Shown here one piece after another: positions 3,981-63,458 of a stretch of 64,000 bases of DNA. The notes beneath the pieces are model-generated. The model saw only the letters and a list, made by a program, of their open reading frames with translations, was not told where the DNA came from and ran no database searches. How positions within the stretch are numbered: position 1 is the stretch's first letter; every line of letters begins with the position of its first letter. Made by a program: the position numbers and the translations under genes. Source of the DNA: Podarcis melisellensis (Eukaryota); assembly GCA_964234715.1 (NCBI GenBank), contig OZ174276.1; one strand, written 5' to 3'.

Positions 3981-4256
<276 letters not shown>

Positions 4257-4815
4257 TCAAAAAATTCAAAATAGTGTGTGTGTATAGATAGAGATATAGA
4301 GATATAGAGATGATATAGAGATATAGAGATAGATATTAGGGGGAGCTGGAGTTCACTCCAGAAAAGCACTAGAAGAAATATTTTCCATACTAGCTTCTTT
4401 TTGGTTTTTGGGTGGTGATGCTTATTACAGTAATGAACAAAAAAACATTAAATGCTACGAATTCTCAAAGTCAACACCATGGAAATCTTTCCACTTGTGT
4501 ATCACACAGGTTATAAAGTGCACCTATTTCTTCAGTATGCTGGTTTTACTTAATTTTTTTTACATGTTGTCTTCTGGTTTGAATTCTCAGAAAAATCTTG
4601 CTTGAAGACCTTGTGCAATATACATTAGCTTGAATCGAGGGAACAGTAGAGAATGCATTCAACCTTCCTTTAGGTAATGTTTCTTCTTAAGAGCTATGGA
4701 AACTTGAAGAGGCTTAAGTTTAAATTTGCATTAGAATGGGATCCTTACCTGGAATGCAAGGTTCAGCAAACTCAATAGGCTTGCTAATGTAAACTAGTTT
4801 TAAAAGACCAGTAGC

Positions 4816-4866
<51 letters not shown>

Positions 4867-6858
4867 TTATTTATACCCCACCCATCTGGCTGGGTTTCCC
4901 CAGCCAGTCTGGGCAGTTTCCAACCGAATATTAAAAACAAAGCAACATTTGTTGTAGCTGATCACCTATTGGATTACTGTGCCAGGAGGTTAAAAAGATT
5001 TGTTTGCATTATCAGTTTTGTTGGAATGGCAACACAAAAACTCTTTCAACCTCTGATTTGTGTATAACTGTTGGGTGAATGAATCACAAGTTGAAAGAAA
5101 GTAAACAAACCATGACTAGACCAGTGTCTCATGAGCTGTTCCTATTCTGCCTTGGGACACAATCTAGAGTCATCATTCACAGACCCACATAAAAGCAAAG
5201 TGACTTGTCAATTTTTCTGTCAGGGACAAGAGGGTTTGAACTAGGAATTGTGGGGTCTAGGTTTAGGACCTAAGCTGAACTGTAGACTGTGCGTGTTCTC
5301 AGGCTTCAGAGCTTTTTTCAGGCACAAAAGGACTTTGCAACATCAAGTCGTGTGACTGGTGAAGCCTGATACAAATCCTAGAAGCCATGCCTTTTACTGT
5401 TGTATGGTCAGAGATGTAGAACCTATTTGCTACTCTTCAAGCCCAGACCTGGGGTTGGGTGCAGTTCCACTCAGCTCTGGACAGCATTGGCAAATGTCAA
5501 GACAAGTCAACAAGAGCATGTGACTGAAGGCAGTGGAATTCCTTGTCTGCATTGCCTGGAGTTTTTACCCCAATGTAGCCAGAGGCAATACTATGGTGTA
5601 AAGAAGTCCATGGTAACAGATATTATCAGGATTCAGCTCAGTAAACTATTTTAATTGTGGAATTTGAAATGCCCATTAAGAGAAGAAGCCATACTCCTGC
5701 AAAGTAGAATCCTGTTTCAACCTTACCCAAATTTTACCTAAGAAGACAATACTACATGTTGAGATAGGAGCGTAGTAAAAGATACAAATTGGTTCATTAG
5801 CTGGGTACTTCTCTATAACAATGGGCATAGAGGCTTTCCAGAGTTCAGGCAGGATCTTTCCCAGCCCTTTGAAACAAGAACCTAGAGACTGAACTTGGGG
5901 TCTTCTGCATGCAAAATATGTTTTCTCTCCAGCTTTGAACCCTCCCCATAGTCTGAGGAATTACCAGCAAGGTAAGAATATTTTGTAATTTTTAGATTAA
6001 ATATATTGCAAGAAAAGTAGCTAAGGTTGCAAAACTCTATGGTCCCTGAAAAGGTGACCTAAGCCATACGGTCTTCTGGACCTCCCTGAAAAGAGAGGTC
6101 TGCTCTCTCAGGGGAAGATCTGGATTTATAAGCCTCTCTGTGAGGCAATGGAGATGTCTGCAGCTAGTGTTCCTCCAACCAAATTAGAAAGGGGTGGAAA
6201 AACCTGTGCCCCACTCTTTCCACATGAACTGGCAGGGCATAGGTTCTTCTAATTGTATTACTCCCCACTTCCCACCTCATATAGGTTTGCTCCACTAAGT
6301 AAACAGTGCTAATATAAATTGCAATGATTTTAAGCTAATTAGGAGAAGAAATTGTTTTAGCTGGGTTGTGATGACTCAAATTCTGAATCTTAAATGTAAA
6401 TTTAATAGGCAGTAGTACACAACAATGCTGAACACCAGCACAAAACATCACACAATCTGGCTGAGCTGAAGCACTTGTATTTACCTTGATTTACTCACTT
6501 TAAAATTATCTCTAAATATTTCATCCAAACTGGTTCAAAAGAAAGCTTTTCAGTGCTTAAATATATGTAAACCTGACCAGCCTCCAAAATTAGAACAGGA
6601 AGCACATTCAAAGGGCAAGAGCCAAAGTAACATTAGTGCAAGAAAAGCTGCTACTTCACAGGTGAGCTTTGTTGTGCGATGGGTATCACAAGTGGAAGTA
6701 GCGTAACAGCACAAAAAGTAAATGATAGAGTTAAGCTGTGCAACAATTCCACCATTCTAAGTCACCCATTGGATTTGGCTGTTATGTTATGTTAGGAATG
6801 GAGCTTCTGTTATGGGTAGCTGGCACAACAGGATATATGTTGAGCAAAAAGTGCTTAC

Positions 6859-7011
6859 CTAAAGCCACTCTGGCAGCTGAAGCATCATAATTGATCCAGA
6901 ATGAAACCCAGGAGAGAATAGTGATCAGAATGGAAGGCATATAGGTCTGAAGTATGAAGTAGCCAATGTTTCTCTTGAGTTTGAAACTGAGTGATAGCCT
7001 TGGATAGGAAC
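6859..7011 (-). CDS. GABRB2: GABRB2 exon (153 bp; [51 protein letters not shown]; loop C, M1, start of M2)
   Basis: Translated by hand (absent from the ORF track). Acceptor TTCTAG|GT and donor TTAG|GTAAGC. Confidence 0.97.
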
Positions 7012-8649
7012 CTAGAACAGAATTTATGTTTAGAAGGTCAAGTTTCAGTTCTGTAGCCCTGCAAACACATTGTTAACATTTACAACCTGCAGACTTTTAT
7101 TGTAATTCAACACCCATAAGGCAAAAATAAAATTTATTATTAAACAAACAAAATGCCAGTTTCTTTAATCTGTGCCTAAACAAAGATGTCAAAGGTTCAC
7201 TGCGCCTTTGCTAGCAGGTGTGCATACACCGAAACCATTAAGCTTTGCAGTAGCTCAGCATCCAATATTGCATTTTGACCTTTGCATGTTCTACCTTGCT
7301 ATGGTCACTTTGAAATCACCTGAAGTGCTAGGCTCAGAAACTGGTTCATATACTCATAGCCACAAAATTCAGGTAAGCAGAGTTGTATTCATTCTGTACT
7401 AGCTGTCATATCAATCAAACATAACAAGTTGTCATGTTGGGTATTTATGGCATGATTCCGCTCCTTCATCATTATCTTCTTGGCAGGTGATGCCAGAACA
7501 AGTAAAAACTCAAAATAGCCCCTGTGTAACCAAATAAGCGAACAGTGGAAAAGACCGGGCTGGGAAAAGGGAAATGAAAGGGGATGAGAAGTAAAAACAC
7601 CAGAAACAGAGCAATATTTAAAACTGTTTAGGCTCTGAGGTTTGTTTAGGCCTCCCACACAAACCTCCTGTGGGAGGAGCAAAATTCTGATCCTTATACT
7701 TTCAAACCACTGATCTCTGCTCCCAAGAAAAATCAAACTGGGACAACTGTTCTGCACAAATCCATGAAATGCAAAAGTGGTATTTGCAATCAGACTTGAT
7801 TAGCAGTCCGGATAGTTACATCCTGTTCTCTTGAGTGTTGCTTGTTAGTTAAAAAAACCCAAAAAAACAGCCCCACTGAACTAGGATTGGAAGTCTGTGT
7901 AGCAGAAGCAGGAGTTGCACATCCTGTTTCACTATCTGAGGAATGTACTGCCCCCACTGAAGCCTTACTTATCGGGGTTGCACAACAGCTTCCGGCAAGA
8001 TCTCACGAGAGTTGAATGCGATCTTGCTGGAAGCTGTGACTGCTTCTCCTCGCTTCCATAGTGGTGGTGGCAGGGGCGCCACCCCATGGGATTCCACCAT
8101 CCAAGGCAGCTGCCTCAGTCCGCCTCATGGGCAGGCTGGCCCTGAAAAAGGGGAGGGGGTAGCATCAAATTATGATTCCATATGGTGTCATCAGGCATAA
8201 GAAAAGGGCATCCATATATTTTAATAATGAAAGTGTATGGGGAAAGTAGCTTGCTTTTTATCAGCTTTGAGAGTGGCTGCAGAAAATAGAAAATAGTTTA
8301 TTCGTTCAGGTCGATTAAGGTTGATACCCTTTTAAAACAACAACGACCCACACTGGCTGAATACAAAAGTATTTACTATATGTACACCACAGTCCTATAC
8401 ATGTTTCTTTATGTACTGTGTTCAATGGGACTAACTTCTAGGCAAGCATGCATAGGACAGCAGGTTTAGTGCACCTGACACGGCACAGTTATTTTAATAA
8501 GGAATAAATTGTATTGGTTTGCCTATTCAGTGCTCATTTGTTTATTCTTTATACGATCCATGCAGCTAGTCATTATGTACTATCCAAAACAACTGATGGG
8601 AAGCTTTTCAGCGAGCAGATAGATGCATTTCCTTTGTGGCACCCCTTCA

Positions 8650-8817
<168 letters not shown>

Positions 8818-28363: not shown

Positions 28364-28771
28364 TGTGATGGGACGATGAGCTGCTTGTGCGTAAAATGCA
28401 AGTCCCTCAGAGTTTGATCAGGTTTTCAAACCTCTGCCTGTGACGGAGCCCCTCCAGCATGGCTGCGTCAATCACTAGTAGTATCCGAAAGTGGCTGCTT
28501 TCGGAAACGTTTCCAACATAAAAGCTCCTTAACGGAAACACGTCGTCTGGCCTCTCGGCGTGACAGTTTCCGTCGAGGTGTGGGTGTCCCTATAGGAGGT
28601 CCTGAGACCTCCCCACTGGTTTCGCTTGAAGCGTCTCTGAGCCATCCCTCCGACTCACTTTCCCTTGGAGTTCTTGCTCGCCCTCTACTGGTTCCCTCTT
28701 CCGCTGCTACTGCTCTCTCAACCTCAGGGAGCCTTTGCACCTGCGGCGCTTTAGATGTCAGTTCCCTGACA
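28364..28771 (-). repeat. 3' LTR of copy 1 (408 bp)
   Basis: Direct repeat of 33454-33861 with no differences found by eye; element-sense TGTCAGG...CATCACA. Confidence 0.97.
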
Positions 28772-31700
28772 TCCACCTCCCCTCCAGGGCCCCCTTCACC
28801 CCCTCCCGTCTCCTCTCCTACTGGCGGTGAGGAGGTAAAACCCCTGAAAGAACCTCCCTCATCTTCCGACGTCGCGAACACTTCCTTCCACTTGTTGCTG
28901 TTCCTACTCTCTAGGTACTCTTCGTCATCAGAGTCCACTCCATCTTCCAACTCCGACTCCGCGAACCCTTCCATTTCCTCTTCCTCATCGGTGGTGCCGA
29001 AATACTCCCTCCTAAACCTTGCTATAGGCTGAGGTTTCCTCGGGAACCTTTGGTGGAACGTTTCTGTTAAAACCTCGTCATTGACTTCCTCTGCACTTAC
29101 CCAGGTGTTTTCTGACTCCGGTTCCCCTTCCCACGCCACCAAATACTCCACCTGATTACCCTTCCACCTGGAATCGAGGATTTCCGCTACATGGTTGCGG
29201 CGTTCCCTCTCTTCCAAGGCTGGTCCCCTGACGTGCTCCCCTTCACGTCCCCCCCTGTATGGTGACAGTAACGACCTGTGGAACACTGGGTGCAATTTCA
29301 TGTGGTTGGGTAATCGGAGTTTGAAAGCTACCGGGTTGACCTGCTGAATCACCTCAAAGGGTCCCAATCTTCTGGGCCTCAGTTTCTTACAACCCCCTTT
29401 GAACGGCAACCCTTGGGTTGACAACCACACTTGATCCCCCACCCTTATGGTTTCACCTTCCCTTCTGTTCTTGTCTGCCTGCTTCTTATATTGTGCCTTG
29501 GCCCTTTCTAAGTTGAGCTGGAGCTGCTGATGGATGGCTTCCATCTCTTCTACAAAATGTTCAGCCGCTGGAACACTCCATCTCTCCCCTCCTTCCCCTG
29601 GAAATGCCCTGGGGTGACACCCGTAATTAGCCAAAAAGGGACTCATCCCTGTGGACACATTCTCCGCATTATTGTAGGCAAATTCTGCCAACGCCAACTT
29701 TTCGACCCAATCGTTCTCTCTGTCATTGACATAACACCTAAGATATTGTTGAAGAATGCCATTTGCCCTTTCCGCCTGCCCGTTGGTTTCAGGGTGCCGG
29801 GCAGTTGAAAAATTAACTTCCACGTGTAGCAAGCTCATGAGCTTCCTCCAGAACCTGGAAGTAAATTGTTTGCCTCGATCTGAGATCACCCTCGAGGGAG
29901 CCCCGTGCAACCTAAAGATATGTTCCACAAACAACTTCGCCGTTTCTTCCGCTGTGACTGCATGTGAGCATGCTACAAAATGGCACATCTTAGTTAACAG
30001 GTCTACTACTACCATGATGGCTGTTTTCCCCTTGGACCTTGGCAGATCCGTCATAAAATCTATTGATATCGCTTCCCAAGGCCGTTCTGGTGTGGGTAAA
30101 GGTTCTAATAACCCTGCCGGCGCCCTTCTTTCCCCTTTGGCTCGCTGACATTGGTCACACCCTCTTACATACTCCCTTACATCTTCCCTCACCTTAGGCC
30201 ACCAAAATTCCCTGGTAACCAACCACATGGTTTTGTGTTGCCCAAAATGTCCCGCCGTGGGGCTATCATGCAACTGCTTGAGTACTCTCCCCCTCAATTC
30301 ACCTTCGGGTATATACAGTGCCCCTTTGTAATACAATGCCCCATTTCTTTCCTCAAAACCTCCGGGGCTCTCGCCCTTCCCCCTGAGACCTCTGAGCTTA
30401 TCCTGGGCATATTCATCATTTTCCGTTTCCTCCACCAGTTCCCGTTGCCCCACCAGCGCCGCCCCACACACCCAGCGGTCCTCCGGGATGACATGTCTCT
30501 CTTCGATCACCTCCTCCCCTTCCCAATATTCTGGTTTGCGTGAGAGCGCATCCGCCCTGACGTTTTCTGGGCCTGGCACATAACAAATCTCAAAGTTAAA
30601 TTTGGAGAATTCCTGTGCCCATCTCACTTGTCGTTGGTTGAGCACTCGAGCTGTTCTCCAATACTCTAAATTTTTGTGGTCGGTGCACACTTGCACCTTG
30701 TGTTGTGCCCCAATTAATAAATGTCTCCACCTCCGGAATGCTTCGTGAATGGCAAGTAGTTCCCTGTCATACACCGTGTAATTCCTCTCGGACTTATTCA
30801 GTTTCCGCGAGAAGAATGCACACGGTCTCCACTCCGACGCACTCCTCCCCGGTTGAAGAAGGACCGCCCCTATAGCCCGGTCGGATGCATCTGTTTCCAC
30901 TCTCATGGGTTTTTGTAAATCCACATGCAGAAGTTGTTCTTCCGAGGCGAAAGCCCTTTTCAGTTCTTCAAAGGCTCGATCCGCCTCCACCGTCCAAACA
31001 AATTTCTTCTTGCTGCTGAGGCAGTCGGTGATGGGCGCCGTCAAGTGGGCAAAGTTCTTGATGAACTTCCGATAAAAGTTCCCAAACCCCAAGAATCTTT
31101 GCACGTCCTTCTTGGTCTTCGGTGTCTTCCATTCCAGTACCGCTTGAACCTTGCCTGGATCCATGGCCAATCCCTTGTCTGACAAGCGGTACCCCAGGAA
31201 TTCCACCTCCTTGGTATGAAACTGGCACTTCTCCAGTTTCACCCACAGCTGGTTGGCTTGCAGCCTGCCCAACACTTCTCGAACGTCCCTCACATGCTGT
31301 TCCTCATCTTCCGAATACACCAACACGTCGTCTAAAAAGGCCACACAGTTCTTGTAGAGCAAAGGTCCCAGAACGTGGTTTATAAAAGCTTGAAAACAGG
31401 CGGAGCCCCCTTGTAGACCGAAGGGCATAACGAGGTATTCAAAGGCTCCCAAAGGGGTAAACATGGTGGTCTTCCATTCATCTCCCTTCCTTATGCGTAT
31501 CAGATTGTACGCCCCCCGCAGGTCCAGTTTTGTAAAAATCTTTCCCTTCCTTACTCTGGTCAAAATGTCGTCAATTCGGGGCATAGGGAAAGCCAGGGGC
31601 TCCGACACTGCATTGAGGGCCCTGAAGTCACACACCAGTCTCGGTTTGTCTGTGTTCTTTTTGTCCACAAAAAACACTGGGCTGCCCCCCACCGCTCGGG

Positions 31701-32559
31701 ACTCTCTGATGAAACCTCGCTTCAAGTTTTTGTCAATGAACTCCCTCAGCTCCTGCATCTCCCTGTCTGACATGGCGTACAGCTTGCCTACTGGGAGTTG
31801 GGCCCCTGGGAGTAGGTTGATTTGACAGTCAAAGGGTCTATGCGGTGGCAGTTTGTCTGCTTCCCTTTCGCTGAATACGTTGCTCAGATCTGCGTATTGC
31901 GGGGGCACCTTCCCTTTGCCCATCACTTCCATCCCCGCTAGGGTGACTCTGTCTCCTCCCGAGACCTTCCCCTCCTTGCAGTGTTCTAGGCAATGCGCTG
32001 ACCCAAAGGAGACCACCCTCTGATGCCAGCCCACTAGCGGATCGTGTAGCGCCAGCCAGCTCATCCCCAAAATGATGGGCGCTCCTCCCAGGATGGCCAC
32101 ATTAAACGCTATCTGTTCGGTGTGCCTTGCCACTCTCATTATCATCGGGACAGTCTGTTGGCTAACTTCTCCCCCCAACAGCTCTCTGCCGTCAATCGTA
32201 GTCACCTGCAAGGGGTTACTTAAAGGGATGGTCTGTATCTGGTGCTCAGCTGCAAACTCCTTACTCATGAAATTACAGGAGCTGCCTGAATCCAAAAGCG
32301 CCTTGACCTTTAGTGGGTGTCCGTTTGGCAGTTCTAGTAACACCTCTATCACTAAAGCAGGTCTGGGAGGTTCTGGCATGGGCACTTTCATTGCTCTTCG
32401 GCCTGGCTGCTGTGCCCCGACGGTGGCAGCCAGGCGTTGGCTTTTACTTGCTCCTTGCTTTCCTCTTCCTTTCCCCCAACAGCTCCTGCCATCCCTTGCC
32501 ATTCCTTTCTTTGTGGGCAGACTCTGGCAAAGTGCCCTGGCTGTTGGCAGAGATAACAT
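28468..32559 (-). CDS. pol: Pol of copy 1 (protease, RT, RNase H, integrase, chromodomain, long C-terminal tail); -1 frame relative to gag, probably made by frameshift near 32445
   Basis: LLDSGS protease; RT motifs KLDLRGAY, MPFGL, FLDD; RNase H ETDASD, ELLAI, TDHKNL, ADALSR; integrase HHCC, IDF..SDRG..GQAER, GPF module; YLVAWEG..ENTW chromodomain. No stops in 1363 codons. Confidence 0.97.
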   Translation of the reverse strand: MLSLPTARALCQSLPTKKGMARDGRSCWGKGRGKQGASKSQRLAATVGAQQPGRRAMKVPMPEPPRPALVIEVLLELPNGHPLKVKALLDSGSSCNFMSKEFAAEHQIQTIPLSNPLQVTTIDGRELLGGEVSQQTVPMIMRVARHTEQIAFNVAILGGAPIILGMSWLALHDPLVGWHQRVVSFGSAHCLEHCKEGKVSGGDRVTLAGMEVMGKGKVPPQYADLSNVFSEREADKLPPHRPFDCQINLLPGAQLPVGKLYAMSDREMQELREFIDKNLKRGFIRESRAVGGSPVFFVDKKNTDKPRLVCDFRALNAVSEPLAFPMPRIDDILTRVRKGKIFTKLDLRGAYNLIRIRKGDEWKTTMFTPLGAFEYLVMPFGLQGGSACFQAFINHVLGPLLYKNCVAFLDDVLVYSEDEEQHVRDVREVLGRLQANQLWVKLEKCQFHTKEVEFLGYRLSDKGLAMDPGKVQAVLEWKTPKTKKDVQRFLGFGNFYRKFIKNFAHLTAPITDCLSSKKKFVWTVEADRAFEELKRAFASEEQLLHVDLQKPMRVETDASDRAIGAVLLQPGRSASEWRPCAFFSRKLNKSERNYTVYDRELLAIHEAFRRWRHLLIGAQHKVQVCTDHKNLEYWRTARVLNQRQVRWAQEFSKFNFEICYVPGPENVRADALSRKPEYWEGEEVIEERHVIPEDRWVCGAALVGQRELVEETENDEYAQDKLRGLRGKGESPGGFEERNGALYYKGALYIPEGELRGRVLKQLHDSPTAGHFGQHKTMWLVTREFWWPKVREDVREYVRGCDQCQRAKGERRAPAGLLEPLPTPERPWEAISIDFMTDLPRSKGKTAIMVVVDLLTKMCHFVACSHAVTAEETAKLFVEHIFRLHGAPSRVISDRGKQFTSRFWRKLMSLLHVEVNFSTARHPETNGQAERANGILQQYLRCYVNDRENDWVEKLALAEFAYNNAENVSTGMSPFLANYGCHPRAFPGEGGERWSVPAAEHFVEEMEAIHQQLQLNLERAKAQYKKQADKNRREGETIRVGDQVWLSTQGLPFKGGCKKLRPRRLGPFEVIQQVNPVAFKLRLPNHMKLHPVFHRSLLSPYRGGREGEHVRGPALEERERRNHVAEILDSRWKGNQVEYLVAWEGEPESENTWVSAEEVNDEVLTETFHQRFPRKPQPIARFRREYFGTTDEEEEMEGFAESELEDGVDSDDEEYLESRNSNKWKEVFATSEDEGGSFRGFTSSPPVGEETGGGEGGPGGEVDVRELTSKAPQVQRLPEVERAVAAEEGTSRGRARTPRESESEGWLRDASSETSGEVSGPPIGTPTPRRKLSRREARRRVSVKELLCWKRFRKQPLSDTTSD
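28772..28785 (-). other. Polypurine tract of copy 1 (GGAGGGGAGGTGGA)
   Basis: Purine run directly abutting the 3' LTR; same at 47579-47592 in copy 2. Confidence 0.85.
32380..32448 (-). other. Predicted -1 frameshift signal: A GTA AAA, 6-nt spacer, H-type pseudoknot
   Basis: Stem 1 GCCTGGCTGC/GCAGCCAGGC (10 bp) and stem 2 GGGCAC/GTGCCC (6 bp) in the gag/pol overlap. Both stems are identical in copy 2 (51187-51255). Confidence 0.7.
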
Positions 32560-33407
32560 CTCTTGGCGCTCTTTCCCTCCTTCTTCCGCCCTTCACTGGG
32601 ATTTGAAACTGCGCGCGCCCGCGCTGTTCCAACTTCCATCGGCTCTGCCGGCGGGAAAGATGGCTCTGGAATGTCTGGAATGCGGAACTCCCTCCAACGG
32701 TCTCCTTTCCTTTCCCGCCTTTCCAAAGCCCTCGCCTCCTGGCGCGCTCCTATGGCCAGCGCAGATTTGGTTAATTGGTCCATAGACTCCGCCCTGGGCC
32801 CCCGGGAAAGCTCATCTTTGACGGTTGAAGAAAGCCCCTCTTCGAAAAGCATTTGGATGGGCTCCGCCGATAGGTCCCACCCCAATTTATGAATCAGCAT
32901 AGTAAATTCAGTCCAGTACTCACGGACAGATCTGCTTCCTTGCTGGCAAGCCATTAACTGCCTTCGCACCACCCCCTGCTCAATATCGCTGGAAAACATC
33001 AGGTCCATGGCACGAAAAAACTTCCTCGTGTCCTTTAAGATCTCATTATTCGCTGCCATCAGGGGTCTAACCCAATCTTTCGCCCCGGATTCGAGATGGC
33101 CAATCACATACGCCACTCGCGATTCCTCGTCGGGGAAGTCATCAAACTGCAAGTTTAGAGCGTATTGCATCTCTGTTCTAAAGGCATGATAGTTCCTGGG
33201 ATCCCCCCCGAATTTCTGCACCAATCCTGGTACCTTTCTGGCGAGCGGGGTGGTTTTCTCCTTTCCCTTTTCTGCATCCTGAGCCCTCCTCTCCTCAAGC
33301 CTCGCCGTTTGCAGCGCCAACTGGATCTCCAACGCTCTGTACCTTTCTTCCAGGCTTGGACCCCCTCCAGCTGCTCCTGCACCCCCGGTTCCGGCTGGGT
33401 TGCTCAT
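32388..33407 (-). CDS. gag: Gag of copy 1 (339 aa from ATG, MSNPAG...; PEG10/RTL-like capsid, CCHC zinc knuckle)
   Basis: Coiled-coil-like N-terminus, FGGDP motif, MHR-like QQGSRSVREYWTEF, EPMEVG, CYLCQQPGHFARVC. The ORF-track start at 33491 is a TTG inside the LTR; the first ATG (A at -3) is at 33407. Confidence 0.93.
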   Translation of the reverse strand: MSNPAGTGGAGAAGGGPSLEERYRALEIQLALQTARLEERRAQDAEKGKEKTTPLARKVPGLVQKFGGDPRNYHAFRTEMQYALNLQFDDFPDEESRVAYVIGHLESGAKDWVRPLMAANNEILKDTRKFFRAMDLMFSSDIEQGVVRRQLMACQQGSRSVREYWTEFTMLIHKLGWDLSAEPIQMLFEEGLSSTVKDELSRGPRAESMDQLTKSALAIGARQEARALERRERKGDRWREFRIPDIPEPSFPPAEPMEVGTARARAVSNPSEGRKKEGKSAKRCYLCQQPGHFARVCPQRKEWQGMAGAVGGKEEESKEQVKANAWLPPSGHSSQAEEQ

Positions 33408-33440
33408 GATGCTTCTCTCTGCACAAGCTGGCTTTCGGTG

Positions 33441-33450
33441 ACTTTCGGAT
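33441..33450 (-). other. Non-tRNA primer-binding site (ATCCGAAAGT), complementary to LTR 33573-33582; predicted self-priming
   Basis: Lies 3 nt past the 5' LTR and lacks the TGG of tRNA PBSs. Exact 10-nt complement in the LTR (11 nt in copy 2: 52248-52258 vs 52379-52389). Confidence 0.8.
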
Positions 33451-33453
33451 TGC

Positions 33454-33861
33454 TGTGATGGGACGATGAGCTGCTTGTGCGTAAAATGCAAGTCCCTCAG
33501 AGTTTGATCAGGTTTTCAAACCTCTGCCTGTGACGGAGCCCCTCCAGCATGGCTGCGTCAATCACTAGTAGTATCCGAAAGTGGCTGCTTTCGGAAACGT
33601 TTCCAACATAAAAGCTCCTTAACGGAAACACGTCGTCTGGCCTCTCGGCGTGACAGTTTCCGTCGAGGTGTGGGTGTCCCTATAGGAGGTCCTGAGACCT
33701 CCCCACTGGTTTCGCTTGAAGCGTCTCTGAGCCATCCCTCCGACTCACTTTCCCTTGGAGTTCTTGCTCGCCCTCTACTGGTTCCCTCTTCCGCTGCTAC
33801 TGCTCTCTCAACCTCAGGGAGCCTTTGCACCTGCGGCGCTTTAGATGTCAGTTCCCTGACA
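33454..33861 (-). repeat. 5' LTR of copy 1 (408 bp)
   Basis: Direct repeat of 28364-28771, upstream of gag. Confidence 0.97.
33578..33613 (-). promoter_or_regulatory. Predicted LTR core promoter: TATA-like TTTTAT at -31 and Inr CCA(+1)CTTT, TSS about 33582 (52389 in copy 2)
   Basis: CCACTTT fits Inr YYANWYY, and the A/T box lies 31 nt upstream. The predicted +1 coincides with the first base of the PBS-complementary segment. Inference only. Confidence 0.6.
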
Positions 33862-35204
33862 AATAGGAATGAACAATACCTGTTCTAACCTAACATGAAC
33901 TTGCATGTTTTCTAGTATGGTTCAAGACGGGAACATCTTATATGCCGTTTACTGGTCTGGATCATAAAGAATCATATATTTAGTTAAACAAAATGTCTTA
34001 GACATGTTGAATGCAATGATAGTGCAGTATTGCTTGGTGAATATGAGACAATGGAATATGAGACAAAGACCCACAAAAAATTATCAATCAGTGCAACTAA
34101 GGACATAAAGATTGACTAGTATTAGTTCTGAAATGCAGCAGAAACTCCAGGCAGTACTTTCTTTTTGCAAAAGAACTGGAGAATGCCTCTACCATCATGC
34201 ATTCACTCTGGGATAATCCATTTGCCACTAGTGATGCCAATAAATCAAAGTCCCAGTATATTTATTTTGAAACTTTTAAGTATGGATTTACTAACCCTGC
34301 TCCTAAACTGGACACAAAGGACAGCCAATGCGTTACTTAGATAATCTCAGAATTCCAACAAACACAGCTTATACTCATGAAGATTGATGCAGTTCTCCAA
34401 TATATAAAGTTTGCTGTTTGATATTTTATCCAAGGCACACTAATTACACTTCCTCACTTTTTCTTAAAAGCAGATGTCATTTGCTAGATATTTAGAGAAG
34501 ATAATGAACAGCAATGAACATACACAATGTCAAGAACTGCTGTCAGGAACATTAGTAAATTTTTGATCTTATGGATACGTTCAGAGTAGACCCTAGTACC
34601 TTCGGTGAAGAGTTATTTGACAAATGAAACAAAGGCTACAATTAACTCTCTCCACGGTTTCACACAGTGAAAAATGAACAGAACTCCACATGCTTCTGTT
34701 CTTCAAAATGCAAACATGGGTATTGTTTTGTAAAATGTCTTACAGAGCAGCAAGATAACACATTACGTATCTATATATGTCTACAAGCAATAACAGAAAT
34801 TTGGCATTCATGAGTGTTGCACAGCAGATCTAAAGTATCACATTTTAACCAGAAATCAATAGGACAGAAATCAATACCCCTACTTTCCTGGAGCAAGCCC
34901 CACTAATCCCATTGACACTTTCTTCTGAGTAGGCATGTATAGGATTACACTCAAAAGTAAGACCCAGTGAGCCTACTGAAACTTATTCCTAGGTAAGTGT
35001 TATAAGATTGCAATTTTGTTTTAAATCAAACAAAACAAAAACATTTCAAAAGACAAGGAAGGATAAAACTGAACAGCAGTAACAAAACTTTTTCCACTGA
35101 AGAATGGCTTTTTATGCTTCATACTGTACTTTTATTTAGATGTTTCTAATTACTCTGTAAGCCACCTTGAATCCTGGTTTAGGAAAAGGCAGGGATATTA
35201 TAGA

Positions 35205-35412
35205 ATGATGGAATCATAGAGTTGGAAGGGACCCAAGGGTCATCTAGTCCAACCCCCTGCAAAGCAGGAATCACATCTCCTCTCATTCTCCTGTTTTCCA
35301 AGCTAAACATACCCAGCTTCCATCTTGGTTGCTCTCCTCTGCACACGTTCCAGCTTGTCAACATCCTTCTTAAATTGTGGTGCCCAGAATTGGACACAGT
35401 ATTCCAGATGTG
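35205..35412 (-). mobile_element. CR1 LINE 3' fragment with internal deletions
   Basis: Remnants of [15 protein letters not shown] and KLGMFSLE followed by a CCTTCCAACTCTATGATTC tail. Confidence 0.75.
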
Positions 35413-36976
35413 GATTGACAGTATTATTACTATTATTATTATTATTATTAGTAGTAGTAGTAGTACTTTAGTACATATATGTAAACACAACATATTTGCA
35501 GACAATGTTATGCAAGTCAGATATGTATAAACCTAATTGAAATAACTCTTTGCAATGAAGAAGAATCACAATATGCACGTTTTGTACTTTGTGATCTGAA
35601 TTCCAGTACAAACTGCGCTTTGAAAAGCTACTTTCTGAACATGTTAAAATGCTCACATTGTATATAGTCTTTTCATGCCACTGGAGCAAGTTAGAATGCA
35701 CATCAGAGAAACCACCATTTTTTGAAGACATGCCCCTCCTTCCCTTACAGGCTCCCTCAGTGTGGAAATGCCAAACATCCTTAGCAGAACCACGGCCATT
35801 CTCCTATATGCATTCTGAGGTGGTGCAGTCTTATGACAGAATTGCGACAACCACCACACGTTTGAAACACCTCTTATTTAAGCTTGTTCAATACCTTGGA
35901 AAGGATAGCCAAGGGTCTGTTTTTACTGAACAAGGATATCTATTTCTAGCAGAACAGGAAGTATTCTTCAACACAAGGAAAGCATTTGAAAAACATTTTT
36001 CTGCAGTCCCCTTGAGTGTGCAGAAAGCTGTAAAAAGAAGGGATCTGTCAAGAAAACCTTTAAACGAAATGAGATTGCATGTAATCTTATGTGTGCTATA
36101 AGAAAATGGGGGGGGGGGGACCTTAGCCGTTGATTCAAAATCTCTTTCATGTTCAACTGCTAGAGGAAAAGGTACTTCCCAGGGCAACTGCCATTCAGAG
36201 AATTTATCCATGCACATTTGCTCTCTATGTGCCACAAATTAATTTTATTATTCTCAAATTTATTTTTTTCAATGAAAGCTATTTGTTTTATTTGAAAATG
36301 TATCTAGTCAAAACTATTTAGTGCGCTGTTTATTATCATCATTTCTGTGGCTATTATAAACTGTGAAACAAATTAGCCTTTTAGTGTGCATATGTGGCCG
36401 TGCATTTGCTTCTTCCTTCACAATTGTGAGCAATCAAACCAGGAAGTGTCCAATCAATCATGGTTCCCATTTTGTCTAATCTGGGAAATTATGCTTGCCA
36501 GCTTCAGAAAAAGTCAGTATATTAAACACAAGTTTGAAATTAGTTTTGTTAATAAAAGGTATGTGGCATGTGAACATACAGATTCTACTTTTAGCTGTCA
36601 TGACAATCACCCATTGAAAGGCTAGCCCTTCATGGATTTGCCTAATTTTGTTTAAAATGCCAGGACTAAATTCAGTGCACAGTACATGTATTATATAAAT
36701 ATGTTCTTTTAATCGTTCTGAACATACAATCAGTTCCATTGTATAATGAAGGTCTAGCATTATGACAAAAATAGTTTCTCTTTATTCACTACCTATATGG
36801 TTGCTAATCTGGTACGTTTCTGTCATGCTTCCTCCTCCCCTAGTTATCTTGTTCCTATTCTAGCCACCCAACCAACCAACCAACCAACCAAACAAACAAA
36901 CAAACAAACACTAGTTTAGCCTTTTCTCATAGTGAGATACTCTATCTGGATGATCAGGGGGTCTCTAGTTGGCCAT

Positions 36977-37015
<39 letters not shown>

Positions 37016-37069
37016 TTACTTTATTGACAATCTTATACAACAAATAATGTATACATCTTCTTTTACTAG

Positions 37070-37422
37070 GTAAAGGTCAAGGGACCCCTGACCATTAGGT
37101 CCAGTCGTGACCGACTCTGGGGTTGCGGCGCTCATTGCGCTTTATTGGCCGAGGCAGCCGGCGTACAGCTTCCAGGTCATGTGACCAGCATGACTAAGCC
37201 GCTTCTGGTGAACCAGAGCAGCGCATGGAAACGCTGTTTACCTTCCCGCCGGAGCGGTACCTATTTATCTACTTGCACTTTGATGTGCTTTCGAACTGCT
37301 AGGTTGGCAGGAGCAGGGACCGAGCAACGGGAGCTCACCTCGTTGTGGGGATTCGAACCGCCGACCTTCTGATTGGCAGGCCCTAGGCTCTGTGGTTTAA
37401 CCCACAGCGCCACCCACGTCCC
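37070..37422 (-). mobile_element. Sauria SINE, full length
   Basis: tRNA-like head GGGACGTGGGTGGCGC with B box GGTTCGAATCC; ACCTTT-type tail; 11-bp TSD TCTTTTACTAG (37059-37069, 37423-37433). Confidence 0.92.
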
Positions 37423-40400: not shown

Positions 40401-40489
40401 GGTTGAGGGAGCTCTGGGTTGGTGACAGCACCATCCAGCTGCATCCCAGGAAGTGTTATGTCACTGGGAGGCTGATTTGTTGTTCCCTA

Positions 40490-40837
40490 ACGCGGGTGGT
40501 GCTGTGGTCTAAACCACAGAGCCTAGGACTTGCCGATGGGAAGGCCGGCAGTTTGAAACCCCACAATGGGGTGAGCTCCCGTTGCTCAGTTCCTGCTCCT
40601 GCCAACCTAGCAGTTCAAAAGCATGTCAAAGTGCAAATAGATAAATAGGTACCGCTCTGGCGGGAAGGTAAACGGCATTTCTGTGCGCTGCTCTAGTTTG
40701 CCAGATGCGGCTTAGTCATGCTGGCCACATGACCCGGAAGCTGTACGCCGGCTCCCTCGGCCACTAAAGCGAGATGAGCACCACAACCCCAGAGTTGTTC
40801 GCGACTGGACCTAACAGTCAGGGGTCCCTTTACCTTT
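40490..40837 (+). mobile_element. Sauria SINE
   Basis: Same body and CCTTTACCTTT tail as the other two copies. Confidence 0.88.
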
Positions 40838-42417: not shown

Positions 42418-42509
42418 ATTTCAGAATCTCTCAGTTTCTCATTTTTCCAATCAATGGGTGATTGATATCACCTATTGATTGGAAAAATGAGAAACTGAGA
42501 GATTCTGAA

Positions 42510-42511
<2 letters not shown>
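42418..42511. repeat. Long palindrome: 45-bp arms, 1 mismatch, 4-nt loop, followed by (CA)n
   Basis: ATTTCAGAATCTCTCAG...GGTGAT-TGAT-ATCACC...CTGAGAGATTCTGAAAT. Confidence 0.92.
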
Positions 42512-42552
<41 letters not shown>

Positions 42553-43330
42553 AGCATTATATGCTACTTTCTCCTAATATACACATTTCTGTATTGTGCG
42601 CAATTTTGCCTTATACAAACATTTGTGTTTGTGATTTTCATTAAAATATGTGTTTTTATGCCATTTTGTATGTGAAATGTCAATTTTGAAGGGTGGCCGT
42701 ATTTCACTTTGCTTATTGTTTCAAAAAGTGCAGATCATGTAAGATTACATTTAAATGCAAACTGAAATAGAATCCATCCCAGTTCCTCTCCAGCACCTTA
42801 TCCTCCTGCATGAGTGCTTCAACAAGCATACCTAATCAACTGAATATGTCAACTAACTTGCTGCACACAATGCTTACTTATAAATTTATCATTCATGTTT
42901 TATGTTCTTGTGCAGAAAATGCAGAATTTGCAATATAAACACTATGAATCAGTACAAAGAGGCAGGAAATAATAATTGAAGTAAATACACATGATAAAGC
43001 AATCACGTTTGCACTGGGAAGCCTAATTACAGTGGTACATACACCATCTACTTCAGTGACCAATCTAAACCCTTCATTTAAAAAAACCTGAAACAAATAG
43101 CAATCCTGTTCAGCAGCAGAAAAGGATAAGGAATTGATAGTAATCCTCATGCTCCTCGCATGAACTCCAAAAGACATTTGAGTGAGACTTTTAAAGCTGA
43201 AAATTGTCCATCAAACACACAAAATAAGTTCCTCTAATCCTTGTGCCCCAAATTACTAATCCATCTGGAGAGCTAAATTTGTTTTGTGTGTTTACAAGGA
43301 GCTAAATGTCATCCGACACACAGACAACTA

Positions 43331-43528
<198 letters not shown>

Positions 43529-46459: not shown

Positions 46460-46501
<42 letters not shown>

Positions 46502-47170: not shown

Positions 47171-47578
47171 TGTGATGGGACGATGAGCTGCTTGTGCGTA
47201 AAATGCAAGTCCCTCAGAGTTTGATCAGGTTTTCAAACCTCTGCCTGTGACGGAGCCCCTCCAGCATGGCTGCGTCAATCACTAGTAGAATCCGAAAGTG
47301 GCTGCTTTCGGAATCGTTTCCAACATAAAAGCTCTTTAACGGAAACACGTCGTCTGGCCTCTCGGCGTGACAGTTTCCGGCGAGGTGTGGGTGTCCCTAT
47401 AGGAGGTCCTGAGACCTCCCCACTGTTTTCGCTGGAAGCGTCTCTGAGCCATCCCTCCGACTCACTTTCCCTTGGAGTTCTTGCTCGCCCTCTACTGGTT
47501 CCCTCTTCCACTGCTACTCCTCTCTCAACCTCAGTGAGCCTTTGCGCCCCCGGCGCTTTAGATGGCAGTTCCCTGACA
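47171..47578 (-). repeat. 3' LTR of copy 2
   Basis: 406/408 identical to 52261-52668 (differences at 47510/52600 and 47517/52607). Confidence 0.97.
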
Positions 47579-50500
47579 TCCACCTCCCCTCCAGGGCCCC
47601 CTTCACCCCCTCCCGTCTCCTCCCCTACTGGCGGTGAGGAGGTAAAACCCCTGAAAGAACCTCCTTCGTCTTCCGACGTCGCGAACACTTCCCTCCACTT
47701 GTTGCTGTTCCTACTCTCTCGGTAATCTTCGTCATCGGAGTCCACTCCCTCTTCCAACTCCGACTCCGCGAACCCTTCCATTTCCTCTTCCTCATCGGTG
47801 GTGCCGAAATACTCCCTCCTAAACCTTGCTATCGGCTGAGGTTTCCTCGGGAACCTTTGGTGGAACGTTTCTGTTAAAACCTCGTCATTGACTTCCTCTG
47901 CATTCACCCAGGTGTTTTCTGACTCCGGTTCCCCTTCCCACGCCACCAAATACTCCACCTGATTTCCCTTCCACCTGGAATCGAGGATTTCCGCTACATG
48001 GTTGCGGCGTTCCCTCTCTTCCAAGGCTGGTCCCCTGACGTACTCCCCTTCACGTCCCCCCCTGTATGGTGACAGTAACGACCTGTGGAACACTGGGTGC
48101 AATTTCATGTGGTTGGGTAATCGGAGTTTGAAAGCTACCGGGTTGACCTGCTGAATGACCTCAAAGGGTCCCAATCTTCTGGGCCTCAATTTCTTACAAC
48201 CCCCTTTGAACAGCAACCCTTGGGTTGACAACCACACTTGATCCCCCACCCTTATGGTTTCACCTTCCCTTCTGTTCTTGTCTGCCTGCTTCTTATATTG
48301 TGCCTTAGCCCTTTCTAAGTTGAGCTGGAGCTGATGATGGATCGCTTCCATCTCTTCTACAAAATGTTCAGCCGCTGGGACGCTCCATCTCTCCCCTCCT
48401 TCCCCTGGAAATGCCCTGGGGTGACACCCGTAATTAGCCAAAAAGGGACTCATCCCTGTGGACACATTCTCCGCATTATTGTAGGCAAATTCTGCCAACG
48501 CCAACTTTTCGACCCAATCGTTCTCTCTGTCATTGACATAACACCTCAGATATTGTTGAAGAATGCCATTTGCTCTTTCCGCCTGCCCGTTGGTCTCAGG
48601 GTGCCGGGCAGTTGAAAAATTGACTTCCACGTGCAGCAAGCTCATGAGCTTCCTCCAGAACCTGGAAGTAAATTGTTTGCCGCGATCTGAGATCACCCTC
48701 AAGGGAGCCCCGTGCAACCTAAAGATGTGTTCTACAAACAACTTCGCTGTTTCTTCCGCTGTGACTGCATGTGAGCATGCTACAAAGTGGCACATCTTAG
48801 TTAACAGGTCTACTACTACCATGATGGCTGTTTTCCCCTTGGACTTTGGCAGATCCGTCATAAAATCTATTGATATCGCTTCCCAAGGCCGTTCTGGTGT
48901 GGGTAATGGTTCTAATAACCCTGCCGGCGCCCTTCTTTCCCCTTTGGCTCGCTGACATTGGTCACACCCTCTTACATACTCCCTTACATCTTCCCTCACC
49001 TTAGGCCACCAAAATTCCCTGGTAACCAACCACATGGTCTTGTGTTGTCCAAAATGTCCCGCCGTGGGGCTATCATGCAACTGCTTGAGTACTCTCCCCC
49101 TCAATTCACCTTCGGGTATATACAGTGCCCCTTTGTAATACAATGCCCCATTTCTTTCCTCAAAACCTCCGGGGCTCTCGCCCTCCCCCCTGAGACCTCT
49201 GAGCTTATCCTGGGCATATTCATCATTTTCCGTTTCCTCTACCAGTTCTCGTTGCCCCACCAGCGCCGCCCCACACACCCAGCGGTCCTCAGGGATGACA
49301 TGTCTCTCTTCGATCACCCCCTCCCCTTCCCAATACTCTGGTTTGCGTGAGAGCGCGTCCGCCCTGACGTTTTCTGGGCCTGGCACATAACAAATTTCAA
49401 AGTTGAATTTGGAGAATTCCTGTGCCCATCTCACTTGTCGTTGGTTGAGCACTCGAGCTGTTCTCCAATACTCTAAATTCTTGTGGTCGGTGCACACTTG
49501 CACCTTGTGTTGTGCCCCAATTAATAAATGTCTCCACCTCCGGAATGCTTCGTGAATGGCAAGTAGTTCCCTGTCATACACCGTGTAATTCCTCTCGGAT
49601 TTATTCAGCTTCCGCGAGAAGAAGGCACACGGTCTCCACTCCGACGCACTCCTCCCCGGTTGAAGAAGGACCGCCCCTACCGCCCGGTCGGATGCATCGG
49701 TTTCCACTCTCATGGGTTTTCGTAAATCCACATGCAGAAGTTGTTCTTCCGAGGCGAAAGCCCTTTTCAGTTCTTCAAAGGCTCGATCCGCCTCTACCGT
49801 CCAAACAAATTTCTTCTTGCTGCTGAGGCAGTCGGTGATGGGCGCCGTCAAGTGGGCAAAGTTCTTGATGAACTTCCGATAAAAGTTCCCAAACCCCAAG
49901 AATCTTTGCACGTCCTTCTTGGTCTTCGGTGTCTTCCATTCCAGTACCGCTTGGACCTTGCCTGGATCCATGGCCAATCCCTTGTCTGACAAGCGGTACC
50001 CCAGGAATTCCACCTCCTTGGTATGAAACTGGCACTTCTCCAGTTTCACCCACAGCTGGTTGGCTTGCAGCCTGCCCAACACTTCTCGAACGTCCCTCAC
50101 ATGCTGTTCCTCATCTTCCGAATACACCAACACGTCGTCTAAAAAGGCCACACAATTCTTGTAGAGCAAAGGTCCCAGAACGTGGTTTATAAAAGCTTGA
50201 AAACACGCGGAGCCCCCTTGTAGACCGAAGGGCATAACGAGGTATTCAAAGGCTCCCAAAGGGGTAAACATGGTGGTCTTCCATTCATCTCCCTTCCTTA
50301 TGCGTATCAGATTGTACGCCCCCCGCAGGTCCAGCTTTGTAAAAATCTTTCCCTTCCTTACTCTGGTCAAAATGTCATCAATTCGGGGCATAGGGAAAGC
50401 CAGGGGCTCCGACACTGCATTGAGGGCCCTAAAGTCACACACCAGTCTCGGTTTGTCCGTGTTCTTTTTGTCCACAAAAAACACTGGGCTGCCCCCCACC

Positions 50501-51366
50501 GCTCGGGACTCTCTGATGAAACCTCGCTTCAGGTTTTTGTCAATGAACTCCCTCAGCTCCTGCATCTCCCTGTCTGACATGGCGTACAGCTTGCCCACTG
50601 GGAGTTGGGCCCCAGGGAGTAGGTTGATTTGACAGTCAAAGGGTCTATGCGGTGGCAGTTTGTCTGCTTCCCTTTCGCTGAATACGTTGCTCAGATCTGC
50701 GTATTGCGGGGGCACCTTCCCTTTGTCCATTACTTCCATCCCGGCTAGGGTGACTCTGTCTCCTCCCGAAACCTTCCCCTCCTTGCAGTGTTCTAGGCAA
50801 TGCGCTGACCCAAAGGAGACCACCCTCTGATGCCAGCCCACTAGCGGATCGTGTAGCGCCAGCCAGCTCATCCCCAAAATGATGGGCGCTCCTCCCAGGA
50901 TGGCCACATTAAACGCTATCTGTTCGGTGTGCCTTGCCACCCTCATTATCATCGGGACAGTCTGTTGGCTAACTTCTCCCCCCAACAGCTCTCTGCCGTC
51001 AATCGTAGTCACCTGCAAGGGGTTACTTAAAGGGATGGTCTGTATCTGGTGCTCAGCTGCAAACTCCTTACTCATGAAATTACAGGAGCTGCCTGAATCC
51101 AAAAGCGCCTTGATCTTTAGTGGGTGTCCGTTTGGCAGTTCTAGTAACACCTCTATCACTAAAGCGGGTCTGGGAGGTTCCGGCATGGGCACTTTCACTG
51201 CTCTTTGGCCTGGCTGCTGTGCCCCGACGGTGGCAGCCAGGCGTTGGCTTTTACTTGCTCCTTGCCTTCCTCTTCCTTTCCCCCAACAGCTCCTGCCATC
51301 CCTTGCCATTCCTTTCTTTGTGGGCAGACTCTGGCAAAGTGCCCTGGCTGTTGGCAGAGATAACAT
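47275..51366 (-). CDS. pol: Pol of copy 2 (PR-RT-RH-IN-chromodomain-tail)
   Basis: 1363 open codons with all catalytic motifs intact. Confidence 0.97.
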   Translation of the reverse strand: MLSLPTARALCQSLPTKKGMARDGRSCWGKGRGRQGASKSQRLAATVGAQQPGQRAVKVPMPEPPRPALVIEVLLELPNGHPLKIKALLDSGSSCNFMSKEFAAEHQIQTIPLSNPLQVTTIDGRELLGGEVSQQTVPMIMRVARHTEQIAFNVAILGGAPIILGMSWLALHDPLVGWHQRVVSFGSAHCLEHCKEGKVSGGDRVTLAGMEVMDKGKVPPQYADLSNVFSEREADKLPPHRPFDCQINLLPGAQLPVGKLYAMSDREMQELREFIDKNLKRGFIRESRAVGGSPVFFVDKKNTDKPRLVCDFRALNAVSEPLAFPMPRIDDILTRVRKGKIFTKLDLRGAYNLIRIRKGDEWKTTMFTPLGAFEYLVMPFGLQGGSACFQAFINHVLGPLLYKNCVAFLDDVLVYSEDEEQHVRDVREVLGRLQANQLWVKLEKCQFHTKEVEFLGYRLSDKGLAMDPGKVQAVLEWKTPKTKKDVQRFLGFGNFYRKFIKNFAHLTAPITDCLSSKKKFVWTVEADRAFEELKRAFASEEQLLHVDLRKPMRVETDASDRAVGAVLLQPGRSASEWRPCAFFSRKLNKSERNYTVYDRELLAIHEAFRRWRHLLIGAQHKVQVCTDHKNLEYWRTARVLNQRQVRWAQEFSKFNFEICYVPGPENVRADALSRKPEYWEGEGVIEERHVIPEDRWVCGAALVGQRELVEETENDEYAQDKLRGLRGEGESPGGFEERNGALYYKGALYIPEGELRGRVLKQLHDSPTAGHFGQHKTMWLVTREFWWPKVREDVREYVRGCDQCQRAKGERRAPAGLLEPLPTPERPWEAISIDFMTDLPKSKGKTAIMVVVDLLTKMCHFVACSHAVTAEETAKLFVEHIFRLHGAPLRVISDRGKQFTSRFWRKLMSLLHVEVNFSTARHPETNGQAERANGILQQYLRCYVNDRENDWVEKLALAEFAYNNAENVSTGMSPFLANYGCHPRAFPGEGGERWSVPAAEHFVEEMEAIHHQLQLNLERAKAQYKKQADKNRREGETIRVGDQVWLSTQGLLFKGGCKKLRPRRLGPFEVIQQVNPVAFKLRLPNHMKLHPVFHRSLLSPYRGGREGEYVRGPALEERERRNHVAEILDSRWKGNQVEYLVAWEGEPESENTWVNAEEVNDEVLTETFHQRFPRKPQPIARFRREYFGTTDEEEEMEGFAESELEEGVDSDDEDYRESRNSNKWREVFATSEDEGGSFRGFTSSPPVGEETGGGEGGPGGEVDVRELPSKAPGAQRLTEVERGVAVEEGTSRGRARTPRESESEGWLRDASSENSGEVSGPPIGTPTPRRKLSRREARRRVSVKELLCWKRFRKQPLSDSTSD

Positions 51367-52214
51367 CTCTTGGCGCTCCTTCCCTCCTTCTTCCGCCCTT
51401 CACTGGGATTTGAAACTGCGCGCGCCCGCGCTGTTCCAACTTCCATCGGCTCTGCCGGCGGGAAAGGTGGCTCTGGAATGTCTGGAATGCGGAACTCCCT
51501 CCAACGGTCTCCTTTCCCTTCCCGCTTTTCCAAAGCCCTCGCCTCCTGGCGCGCTCCTATGCACAGCGCAGATTTGGTTAACTGATCCATAGACTCCGCC
51601 CTGGGCCCCCGGGAAAGCTCATCTTTGACGGTTGAAGAAAGCCCCTCTTCGAAAAGCATTTGGATGGGCTCCGCCGATAGGTCCCACCCCAATTTATGAA
51701 TCAGCATAGTAAACTCAGTCCAGTACTCACGGACAGATCTGCTTCCTTGCTGGCAAGCCATTAACTGCCTTCGCACCACCCCCTGCTCAATATCGCTGGA
51801 AAACATCAGGTCCATGGCACGAAAAAACTTCCTCGTGTCCTTTAGGATCTCATTATTCGCTGCCATCAGGGGTCTAACCCAATCCTTCGCCCCGGATTCG
51901 AGATGGCCAATCACAAAAGCCACTCGCGATTCCTCGTCGGGGAAGTCATCAAACTGCAAGTTTAGAGCGTATTGCATCTCTGTTCTAAAGGCATGATAGT
52001 TCCTGGGATCCCCCCCGAATTTCTGCACCAATCCTGGCACCTTTCTGGCGAGCGGGGTGGTTTTCTCCTTTCCCTTTTCTGCATCCTGAGCCCTCCTCTC
52101 CTCAAGCCTCGCCGTTTGCAGCGCCAACTGGATCTCCAACGCCCTGTACCTTTCTTCCAGGCTTGGACCCCCTCCAGCTGCTCCTGCTCCTCCGGTTCCG
52201 GCTGGGTTGCTCAT
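51195..52214 (-). CDS. gag: Gag of copy 2 (339 aa)
   Basis: Near-identical to copy 1 Gag; ATG at 52214; CCHC knuckle intact. Confidence 0.93.
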   Translation of the reverse strand: MSNPAGTGGAGAAGGGPSLEERYRALEIQLALQTARLEERRAQDAEKGKEKTTPLARKVPGLVQKFGGDPRNYHAFRTEMQYALNLQFDDFPDEESRVAFVIGHLESGAKDWVRPLMAANNEILKDTRKFFRAMDLMFSSDIEQGVVRRQLMACQQGSRSVREYWTEFTMLIHKLGWDLSAEPIQMLFEEGLSSTVKDELSRGPRAESMDQLTKSALCIGARQEARALEKREGKGDRWREFRIPDIPEPPFPPAEPMEVGTARARAVSNPSEGRKKEGRSAKRCYLCQQPGHFARVCPQRKEWQGMAGAVGGKEEEGKEQVKANAWLPPSGHSSQAKEQ

Positions 52215-52260
52215 GATGCTTCTCCCTGCACAAGCTGGCTTTCGGTGACTTTCGGATTGC

Positions 52261-52668
52261 TGTGATGGGACGATGAGCTGCTTGTGCGTAAAATGCAAGT
52301 CCCTCAGAGTTTGATCAGGTTTTCAAACCTCTGCCTGTGACGGAGCCCCTCCAGCATGGCTGCGTCAATCACTAGTAGAATCCGAAAGTGGCTGCTTTCG
52401 GAATCGTTTCCAACATAAAAGCTCTTTAACGGAAACACGTCGTCTGGCCTCTCGGCGTGACAGTTTCCGGCGAGGTGTGGGTGTCCCTATAGGAGGTCCT
52501 GAGACCTCCCCACTGTTTTCGCTGGAAGCGTCTCTGAGCCATCCCTCCGACTCACTTTCCCTTGGAGTTCTTGCTCGCCCTCTACTGGTTCCCTCTTCCG
52601 CTGCTAATCCTCTCTCAACCTCAGTGAGCCTTTGCGCCCCCGGCGCTTTAGATGGCAGTTCCCTGACA
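52261..52668 (-). repeat. 5' LTR of copy 2
   Basis: Direct repeat of 47171-47578. Confidence 0.97.

Positions 52669-63077: not shown

Positions 63078-63458
<381 letters not shown>

Follow-up and report, generated by a model that had tools for sequence, protein, structure and literature searches.

Two short units in the disordered integrase tail of a Ty3/Gypsy retrotransposon from the lizard Podarcis melisellensis appear to be conserved short linear motifs that likely bind the IBD of LEDGF/p75 or HDGFL2 and tether the intasome. On the evidence of the sequences, we give this reading a probability of about 0.55.

A young and active chromovirus family in GABRB2

The window, that is, the whole stretch of DNA that we analyzed, comprises 64,000 nt of Podarcis melisellensis (GCA_964234715.1, contig OZ174276.1). 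It holds two copies of the same element, located in two consecutive GABRB2 introns in sense orientation. The elements and the exons of the gene are arranged as follows.

28364..33861, minus strand: copy 1, a full-length chromodomain Ty3/Gypsy element with LTRs and a 5-bp target duplication
28364-28771 and 33454-33861, minus strand: LTRs of copy 1, 408 bp, an identical pair
28468..32592, minus strand: Pol frame of copy 1, 1374 aa from stop to stop, with a disordered tail entering the 3' LTR
32388..33515, minus strand: Gag frame of copy 1 with capsid and zinc knuckle, in another frame and overlapping pol
33441..33450, minus strand: primer-site position of copy 1, complementary to its own LTR (nt 280-289)
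47171..52668, minus strand: copy 2, an independent full-length insertion with 408-bp LTRs that have 2 mismatches
63096..63314, minus strand: coding exon of GABRB2, identified by its translation and located upstream of copy 2
43424..43504, minus strand: GABRB2 coding exon separating the copies (Neur_chan_LBD)
8656-8790, 6860-6946 and 3999-4241 (span 3999..8790), minus strand: three GABRB2 coding exons downstream of copy 1

Because their 5-bp target duplications differ and their LTRs are near-identical, copies 1 and 2 are young, independent insertions. Duplications of 5 bp were found for both window copies and, in clean form, for 46 of the 48 genome copies that were sampled. Pfam places the Pol domains in the order protease, RT, RNase H, integrase, SH3 and chromodomain, and the coding strand inside the element has no long frame beyond Gag and Pol. 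The element thus has the two marks of a chromovirus: the PR-RT-RH-IN order with a C-terminal chromodomain, and TG..CA LTRs with a target-site duplication. When the genome was searched with the 147-aa chromodomain-plus-tail segment, the best 150 matches were all 100% identical, and a search at the DNA level returned 1,177 candidate copies of the window family. The family is very active.

The original prediction regarded two independent insertions in one gene body as a sign of targeting. Their independence and their position within GABRB2 introns hold, given the differing duplications and the flanking exons. We rejected the pair as strong evidence for targeting, since another copy of the family would lie within 64 kb by chance in 5-8% of cases. 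GABRB2 is a neuronal gene, and its introns are very long here.

Two units follow a degenerate chromodomain

The part of Pol that concerns us here lies at the 3' end of the frame and contains three features.

29047..29190, minus strand: chromodomain without the first and third HP1 aromatic-cage residues
28963..29025, minus strand: unit 1, a predicted helix ending at F1198, an 8-residue acidic linker and MEGF
28837..28890, minus strand: unit 2, W-x3-F, a 9-residue acidic linker with S/T residues and FRGF

Both units come directly after the Pfam chromodomain (Pol 1135-1182), in an E/D/G-rich tail just upstream of the polypurine tract. Within unit 1, the minus-strand translation of 28963-29001 reads FGTTDEEEEMEGF (Pol residues 1198-1210), and within unit 2 that of 28837-28878 reads FATSEDEGGSFRGF (residues 1239-1252). 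The two units share one layout, carried by both copies of the element: a hydrophobic-x3-F, an acidic linker and xGF. Five of the 8 linker residues of unit 1 are acids, as are three of the 9 in unit 2, and each unit has two apparent CK2-type S/T-x-x-D/E sites, a kind of site that is common in acidic stretches. In copy 2 the units lie at 47770-47808 and 47644-47685, with protein sequences identical to those of copy 1. Four replacements between copy 1 and copy 2 fall between the units; one of them, K1236R, touches the helix part of unit 2. Compared with HP1, the chromodomain keeps the cage tryptophan and has lost the first and third aromatics. Translation therefore confirmed what had been predicted for the coordinates of the motifs, their identity in copy 2 and the intervening replacements, and the descriptions of the linkers as fitting the CK2 pattern and of the chromodomain as degenerate were likewise accurate. 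According to the accessible part of one study, a chromodomain without the first and third cage aromatics is the group II pattern (PMC3605345).

The comparison of the two copies gives 0 replacements in 27 motif codons vs 4 in 28 spacer codons (one-sided p about 0.06). It is weak alone, and we rejected it as strong evidence for constraint. AlphaFold2 modelled the segment as a folded chromodomain, a helix ending at the F of unit 1 and then a low-confidence chain; pLDDT was mostly <50 past residue 65 of the modelled segment, as is typical of disorder. For unit 2, no helix was predicted in the free chain.

The units are conserved across related families

We searched for the layout with a pattern calibrated so that it finds all 4 solved human IBMs (the LEDGF/HDGFL2 binding motifs); it replaced an earlier, stricter pattern that missed 2 of the 4. 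When the 189-aa tail was shuffled 200,000 times, no shuffle had two pattern sites; with its first 75 aa alone, 1 of 200,000 did. There were no matches in 77,994 background residues from the other retrieved proteins. The unit layout is unlikely to be a product of chance. We note that cross-family conservation is the stronger evidence, because the pattern was written after the motif had been seen.

Related families were obtained from a search of 50%-identity cluster representatives and two homologue searches, and the DNA of several of them through genome searches; a DNA pattern search aimed at one subfamily gave no matches. We examined 155 proteins, 151 of them with a chromodomain match. The pattern matches 8 of the 151 chromodomain tails, many of the others being short or derived from chimeric gene models. 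All eight belong to this one lineage.

The lacertid families that we compared are related down to 61% identity in the integrase half. In a 9-row alignment with one real copy per family, the W, F, F, G and F of unit 2 are invariant in 9 of 9 rows. Together with one G of unit 1, these are the only invariant residues past the opening K-P-x-P. The surroundings change: the x of FxGF can be E, V, M, R, K, Q, L or W, the linkers vary, the length of the spacer differs (P0003), and the anchor codons switch between synonyms. Invariant anchors combined with varying neighbours, spacer and synonymous codons argue for selection on a protein motif and not for a nucleic-acid constraint. We regard such a motif as well supported by the alignment.

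A tree of the region from the C-half of the integrase to the chromodomain groups 12 of 31 rows into one clade (100/99). Of these 12, 8 fit the pattern; F-(8)-FQGF with a non-acidic linker is kept in 3, and the predicted tail of the remaining row has no motif. The motif is absent from all 19 rows outside the clade. A count of 3 changes on this tree was set aside, since its motif label omitted P0275 and P0278. The remaining chromodomain elements, which by sequence and by the few source names are of fish, frog and fungal types, have short basic tails that lack the motif. The named motif bearers are all from Podarcis, and the nearest named relatives of the window element are all Podarcis proteins. 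The F-(8)-FQGF sequences form a sister family (L016-L027, P0014, P0155, P0278) with an S/T/P-rich, non-acidic linker, which is a candidate for a phosphorylation-dependent version of the motif.

Match to the IBM of LEDGF/HDGFL2 partners

Judged by its residues, the closest match of the units is the IBM of LEDGF/HDGFL2 partners. In the portion of a review available to us, the TND-interacting motif is described as a helix, an acidic linker of 8-16 residues and an optional FxGF, with CK2 phosphorylation raising the affinity (PMC9987994). The same portion presents FxGF as particular to LEDGF and HRP2 partners and present in all known ones, and other TND ligands as needing no FxGF (PMC9987994). The published IBM consensus, taken from an article likewise available in part, is D/E-x-E-x-F-x-G-F (PMC8022399).

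We compared the units with solved IBD fusions of POGZ, JPO2 (two motifs) and MLL1. These IBMs share with the units a hydrophobic residue at -4, the F, an acidic linker of 8-14 residues and FxGF. In unit 2, positions -4 and -1 relative to F carry the same hydrophobic residues as in these IBMs, and the linker of 9 residues is followed by FxGF. One sister family has RWRAMF where MLL1 has RFRAVF. Both linkers lie within the range of 8-16 residues and are acidic, and the FRGF of unit 2 is an FxGF. As for the helix, one is predicted to end on the F of unit 1; unit 2 has the invariant W-x3-F with no free helix predicted.

The original prediction equated the helix-F/acidic/FxGF layout with the IBM. 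This is strongly supported by the match to the solved IBMs, by the conserved anchors and by the synonymous variation of codons, but each unit of the window family departs from the consensus. In unit 1, M replaces the first F (MEGF or LEGF) where sister families have FxGF, and the residue at -4 is R in the window family and W, F or L in sister families. In unit 2, G is found at -2, where all 4 human IBMs have E. Because of the M for F and the G for E, neither window unit fits D/E-x-E-x-F-x-G-F. Seven sister-family units match it exactly (P0004, P0012, P0276, P0277 twice, L012 and L028), as do 4 of the 4 human IBMs tabulated. The P0014-type family has retained F..FQGF and lost the acidic linker.

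The host genome has PSIP1 and HDGFL2 IBD exons. The lizard PSIP1 IBD is identical to the human one at 88 of 98 residues, and 4 of the 5 IBD pocket residues named in the accessible text of PMC8022399 are unchanged in it. At one locus (L001:2437-2844), an LTR 76% identical to that of the window family lies just downstream of two HDGFL2 IBD exons and is probably intronic.

We propose that the mature integrase retains the tail and that the two units would bind the IBD of LEDGF/p75 or HDGFL2. The bound host reader could then take over from the weakened chromodomain in tethering the integration complex to chromatin. Two-site binding may offset the imperfection of the two units, and CK2 phosphorylation of the linkers would add charge. 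The outcome would probably be a higher integration efficiency or a spread over open chromatin, not sharp steering to genes. A more far-reaching version, which we put forward tentatively and at less than even odds, is that the lacertid chromovirus lineage traded a methyl-lysine-reading chromodomain for tandem IBM mimics that tether the intasome to H3K36-methylated chromatin. This would be an independent arrival at HIV's cofactor, in a family with >1,000 candidate copies.

In the sample, young copies lie near exons as often as random sites

In order to compare insertions with random positions, we assembled 48 young copies with intact Pol (six per contig on contigs C1-C8, from the best 150 matches, leaving out the window copy) and 48 random sites, and fetched 9.5 kb on each side of every site. 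Exons were called with approximate splice weights, and at the chosen threshold the exon finder recovered 5 of 10 known exons. All 838 candidate exons were scanned with Pfam, and those with transposon-type domains were dropped.

A Pfam-confirmed host exon, which serves as a proxy for annotation, lay within 9.5 kb of 12 of 48 insertions and of 12 of 48 random sites (risk ratio 1.0, 95% interval 0.5-2.0). Counting two doubtful exon hits gives 14 vs 12 (p 0.82). Distances to the exons were alike, with medians of 3.9 kb for insertions and 3.5 kb for random sites, and 6 of 12 elements were on the strand of their near exon. Insertion and random sites did not differ in regional GC, CpG or repeat content. 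The 144 identical copies on C1-C8 were unclustered at scales from 50 kb to 1 Mb (p 0.23-0.69, with contig sizes approximated). The proposed steering of insertions into gene bodies by the motif finds no support in these counts, in the lack of clustering or in the second copy within the window, which has a 5-8% expectation by chance.

For HIV vectors, the accessible part of PMC5082951 reports 75% of integration in genes with LEDGF and 51% without it. The interval of 0.5-2.0 includes this 1.5-fold contrast, so our test could miss it. Equal counts with such an interval disfavour strong gene steering and leave room for modest steering.

Some smaller patterns were seen around the insertions. GC within 1 kb was 0.405 at insertions compared with 0.427 for the random set (p 0.007, among five tests of composition). 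The 48 sampled sites (L040-L219) symmetrically prefer A/T two to three bases beyond the duplication, at -3/-2 and +6/+7, and again some 10 bp out. Older sister families are concentrated on contig C19, possibly the W chromosome, and near contig ends, and copies of the young family are evenly distributed over C1-C8. We rejected the C19 and chromosome-end positions as evidence for targeting, because they are probably where old copies survive.

Alternative explanations

The main rival to LEDGF/HDGFL2 binding, which we judge somewhat unlikely, is that the motifs are real and selected and serve another partner: another TFIIS-N-terminal domain, histone H2A-H2B or the element's own Gag or Pol. H2A-H2B binding would involve an acidic-aromatic motif of the chaperone type. 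Conservation indicates function and not the partner, each window-family unit misses the LEDGF consensus at one position, and the A/T target pattern fits integration into bent or nucleosomal DNA. However, the conserved set is the full IBM layout, with the G and both F of FxGF and the hydrophobic-x3-F upstream, and FxGF is dispensable for other TND ligands according to the accessible portion of PMC9987994. One may also ask whether the resemblance is incidental, arising from a tail that is purine-rich, acidic and of low complexity or from an RNA or DNA constraint near the polypurine tract, given that the tail is E/D/G-rich and adjoins this tract and that the pattern is post hoc. Such an origin is hard to reconcile with anchor codons that vary synonymously between families, a duplicated layout that survives spacer indels and the rarity of two sites among shuffles (no more than 1 in 200,000); we consider it largely refuted and very improbable.

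A narrower form of the IBM-mimicry reading, and a subset of it, is that mimicry directs insertions of the window family to the bodies of transcribed genes marked by H3K36me3, in the way LEDGF guides HIV. All of the motif evidence applies to it, both copies in the window lie in introns, genic copies could be purged by selection, and the 95% interval is compatible with the 1.5-fold HIV contrast (PMC5082951, as far as accessible). We nevertheless think it unlikely in view of the null point estimate and similar exon distances, the unshifted regional GC and CpG and the unclustered 144 copies; moreover, GABRB2, as a long-intron neuronal gene, is of the sort that random insertion also reaches.

Relation to known systems

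Returning to IBM mimicry as a means of tethering, the motifs of JPO2/CDCA7L, POGZ, MLL1, IWS1 and fly JIL-1 resemble the units in their hydrophobic-x3-F, in an acidic linker of 8-9 residues with S/T-x-x-D/E and in FxGF, and those of JPO2 are in tandem, as in the window element. The bearers of LEDGF/HRP2-type motifs are host regulators, whereas the bearer in the window is an autonomous retrotransposon, a predicted binder with each unit one consensus position off. POGZ is transposase-derived but a domesticated host gene, unlike the window element.

HIV integrase contacts LEDGF through its folded core and not through a linear motif. Lentiviral integrase shares with the units the predicted host domain and an overlapping binding site (PMC8022399, accessible part). 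HIV places 75% of its integrations in genes in the available text of PMC5082951, whereas no gene bias was seen in our sample of the window family. In Ty5-Sir4, Ty1-AC40 and MLV-BET, a short integrase C-terminal motif likewise recruits a host chromatin factor, according to the part of PMC7459421 that was available. Ty5, Ty1 and MLV have another motif and partner and sharp site preferences, whereas the window family looks dispersed. The targeting motif of MLV sits at the C-terminus of its integrase. Chromoviruses of the Tf1/sushi group share with the window element the domain order, TG..CA LTRs, the 5-bp duplication and probably self-priming; a group II-like chromodomain is also common to both (PMC3605345, accessible part).

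Integrase-tail motifs for host factors (Ty5, Ty1, MLV) and the lentiviral use of LEDGF are thus already known from the accessible sources. In the review on TNDs, the accessible section on viral mimicry is confined to lentiviral integrases, and the string 'transpos' does not occur in it (PMC9987994). None of the papers found in our full-text searches, as judged by their listings and abstract openings, describes an IBM for a retrotransposon; the literature searched includes few subscription journals and no supplements. IBM mimicry by an LTR retrotransposon is apparently undescribed. To our knowledge, little is known about how vertebrate LTR retrotransposons choose their insertion sites.

If our reading is true, it would be a second, independent route to LEDGF, by way of the host's own linear motif in an autonomous retrotransposon. 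The natural variants, with one or two units, an exact or relaxed consensus and an acidic or S/T-rich linker, would be a ready series for relating tethering to insertion patterns. If binding is true and insertions are nevertheless dispersed, this would show that an element can be tethered to an H3K36 reader without being targeted to genes in the germline.

Other features of the element

Positions 33441-33450 pair with 33573-33582, giving 10 nt of complementarity between the primer site and the element's own LTR. Self-priming is the mechanism of Tf1/sushi-type elements, and the window element likely uses it instead of tRNA priming. There are no tRNA genes within the window. Two small sets of putative RNA reads, aligned to 33900-47100, covered repeats only and give no evidence of expression either way. 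An antisense open frame of 204 codons (28418-29032, plus strand) overlaps the tail. Codon bias probably accounts for it, because its counterpart in copy 2 is shorter (166 codons). Finally, another short conserved motif, LLCWKR, follows a basic stretch at the Pol C-terminus inside the LTR (about 28500-28520 of the window); it is kept in P0001, P0003 and P0004 and even in the distant P0005.
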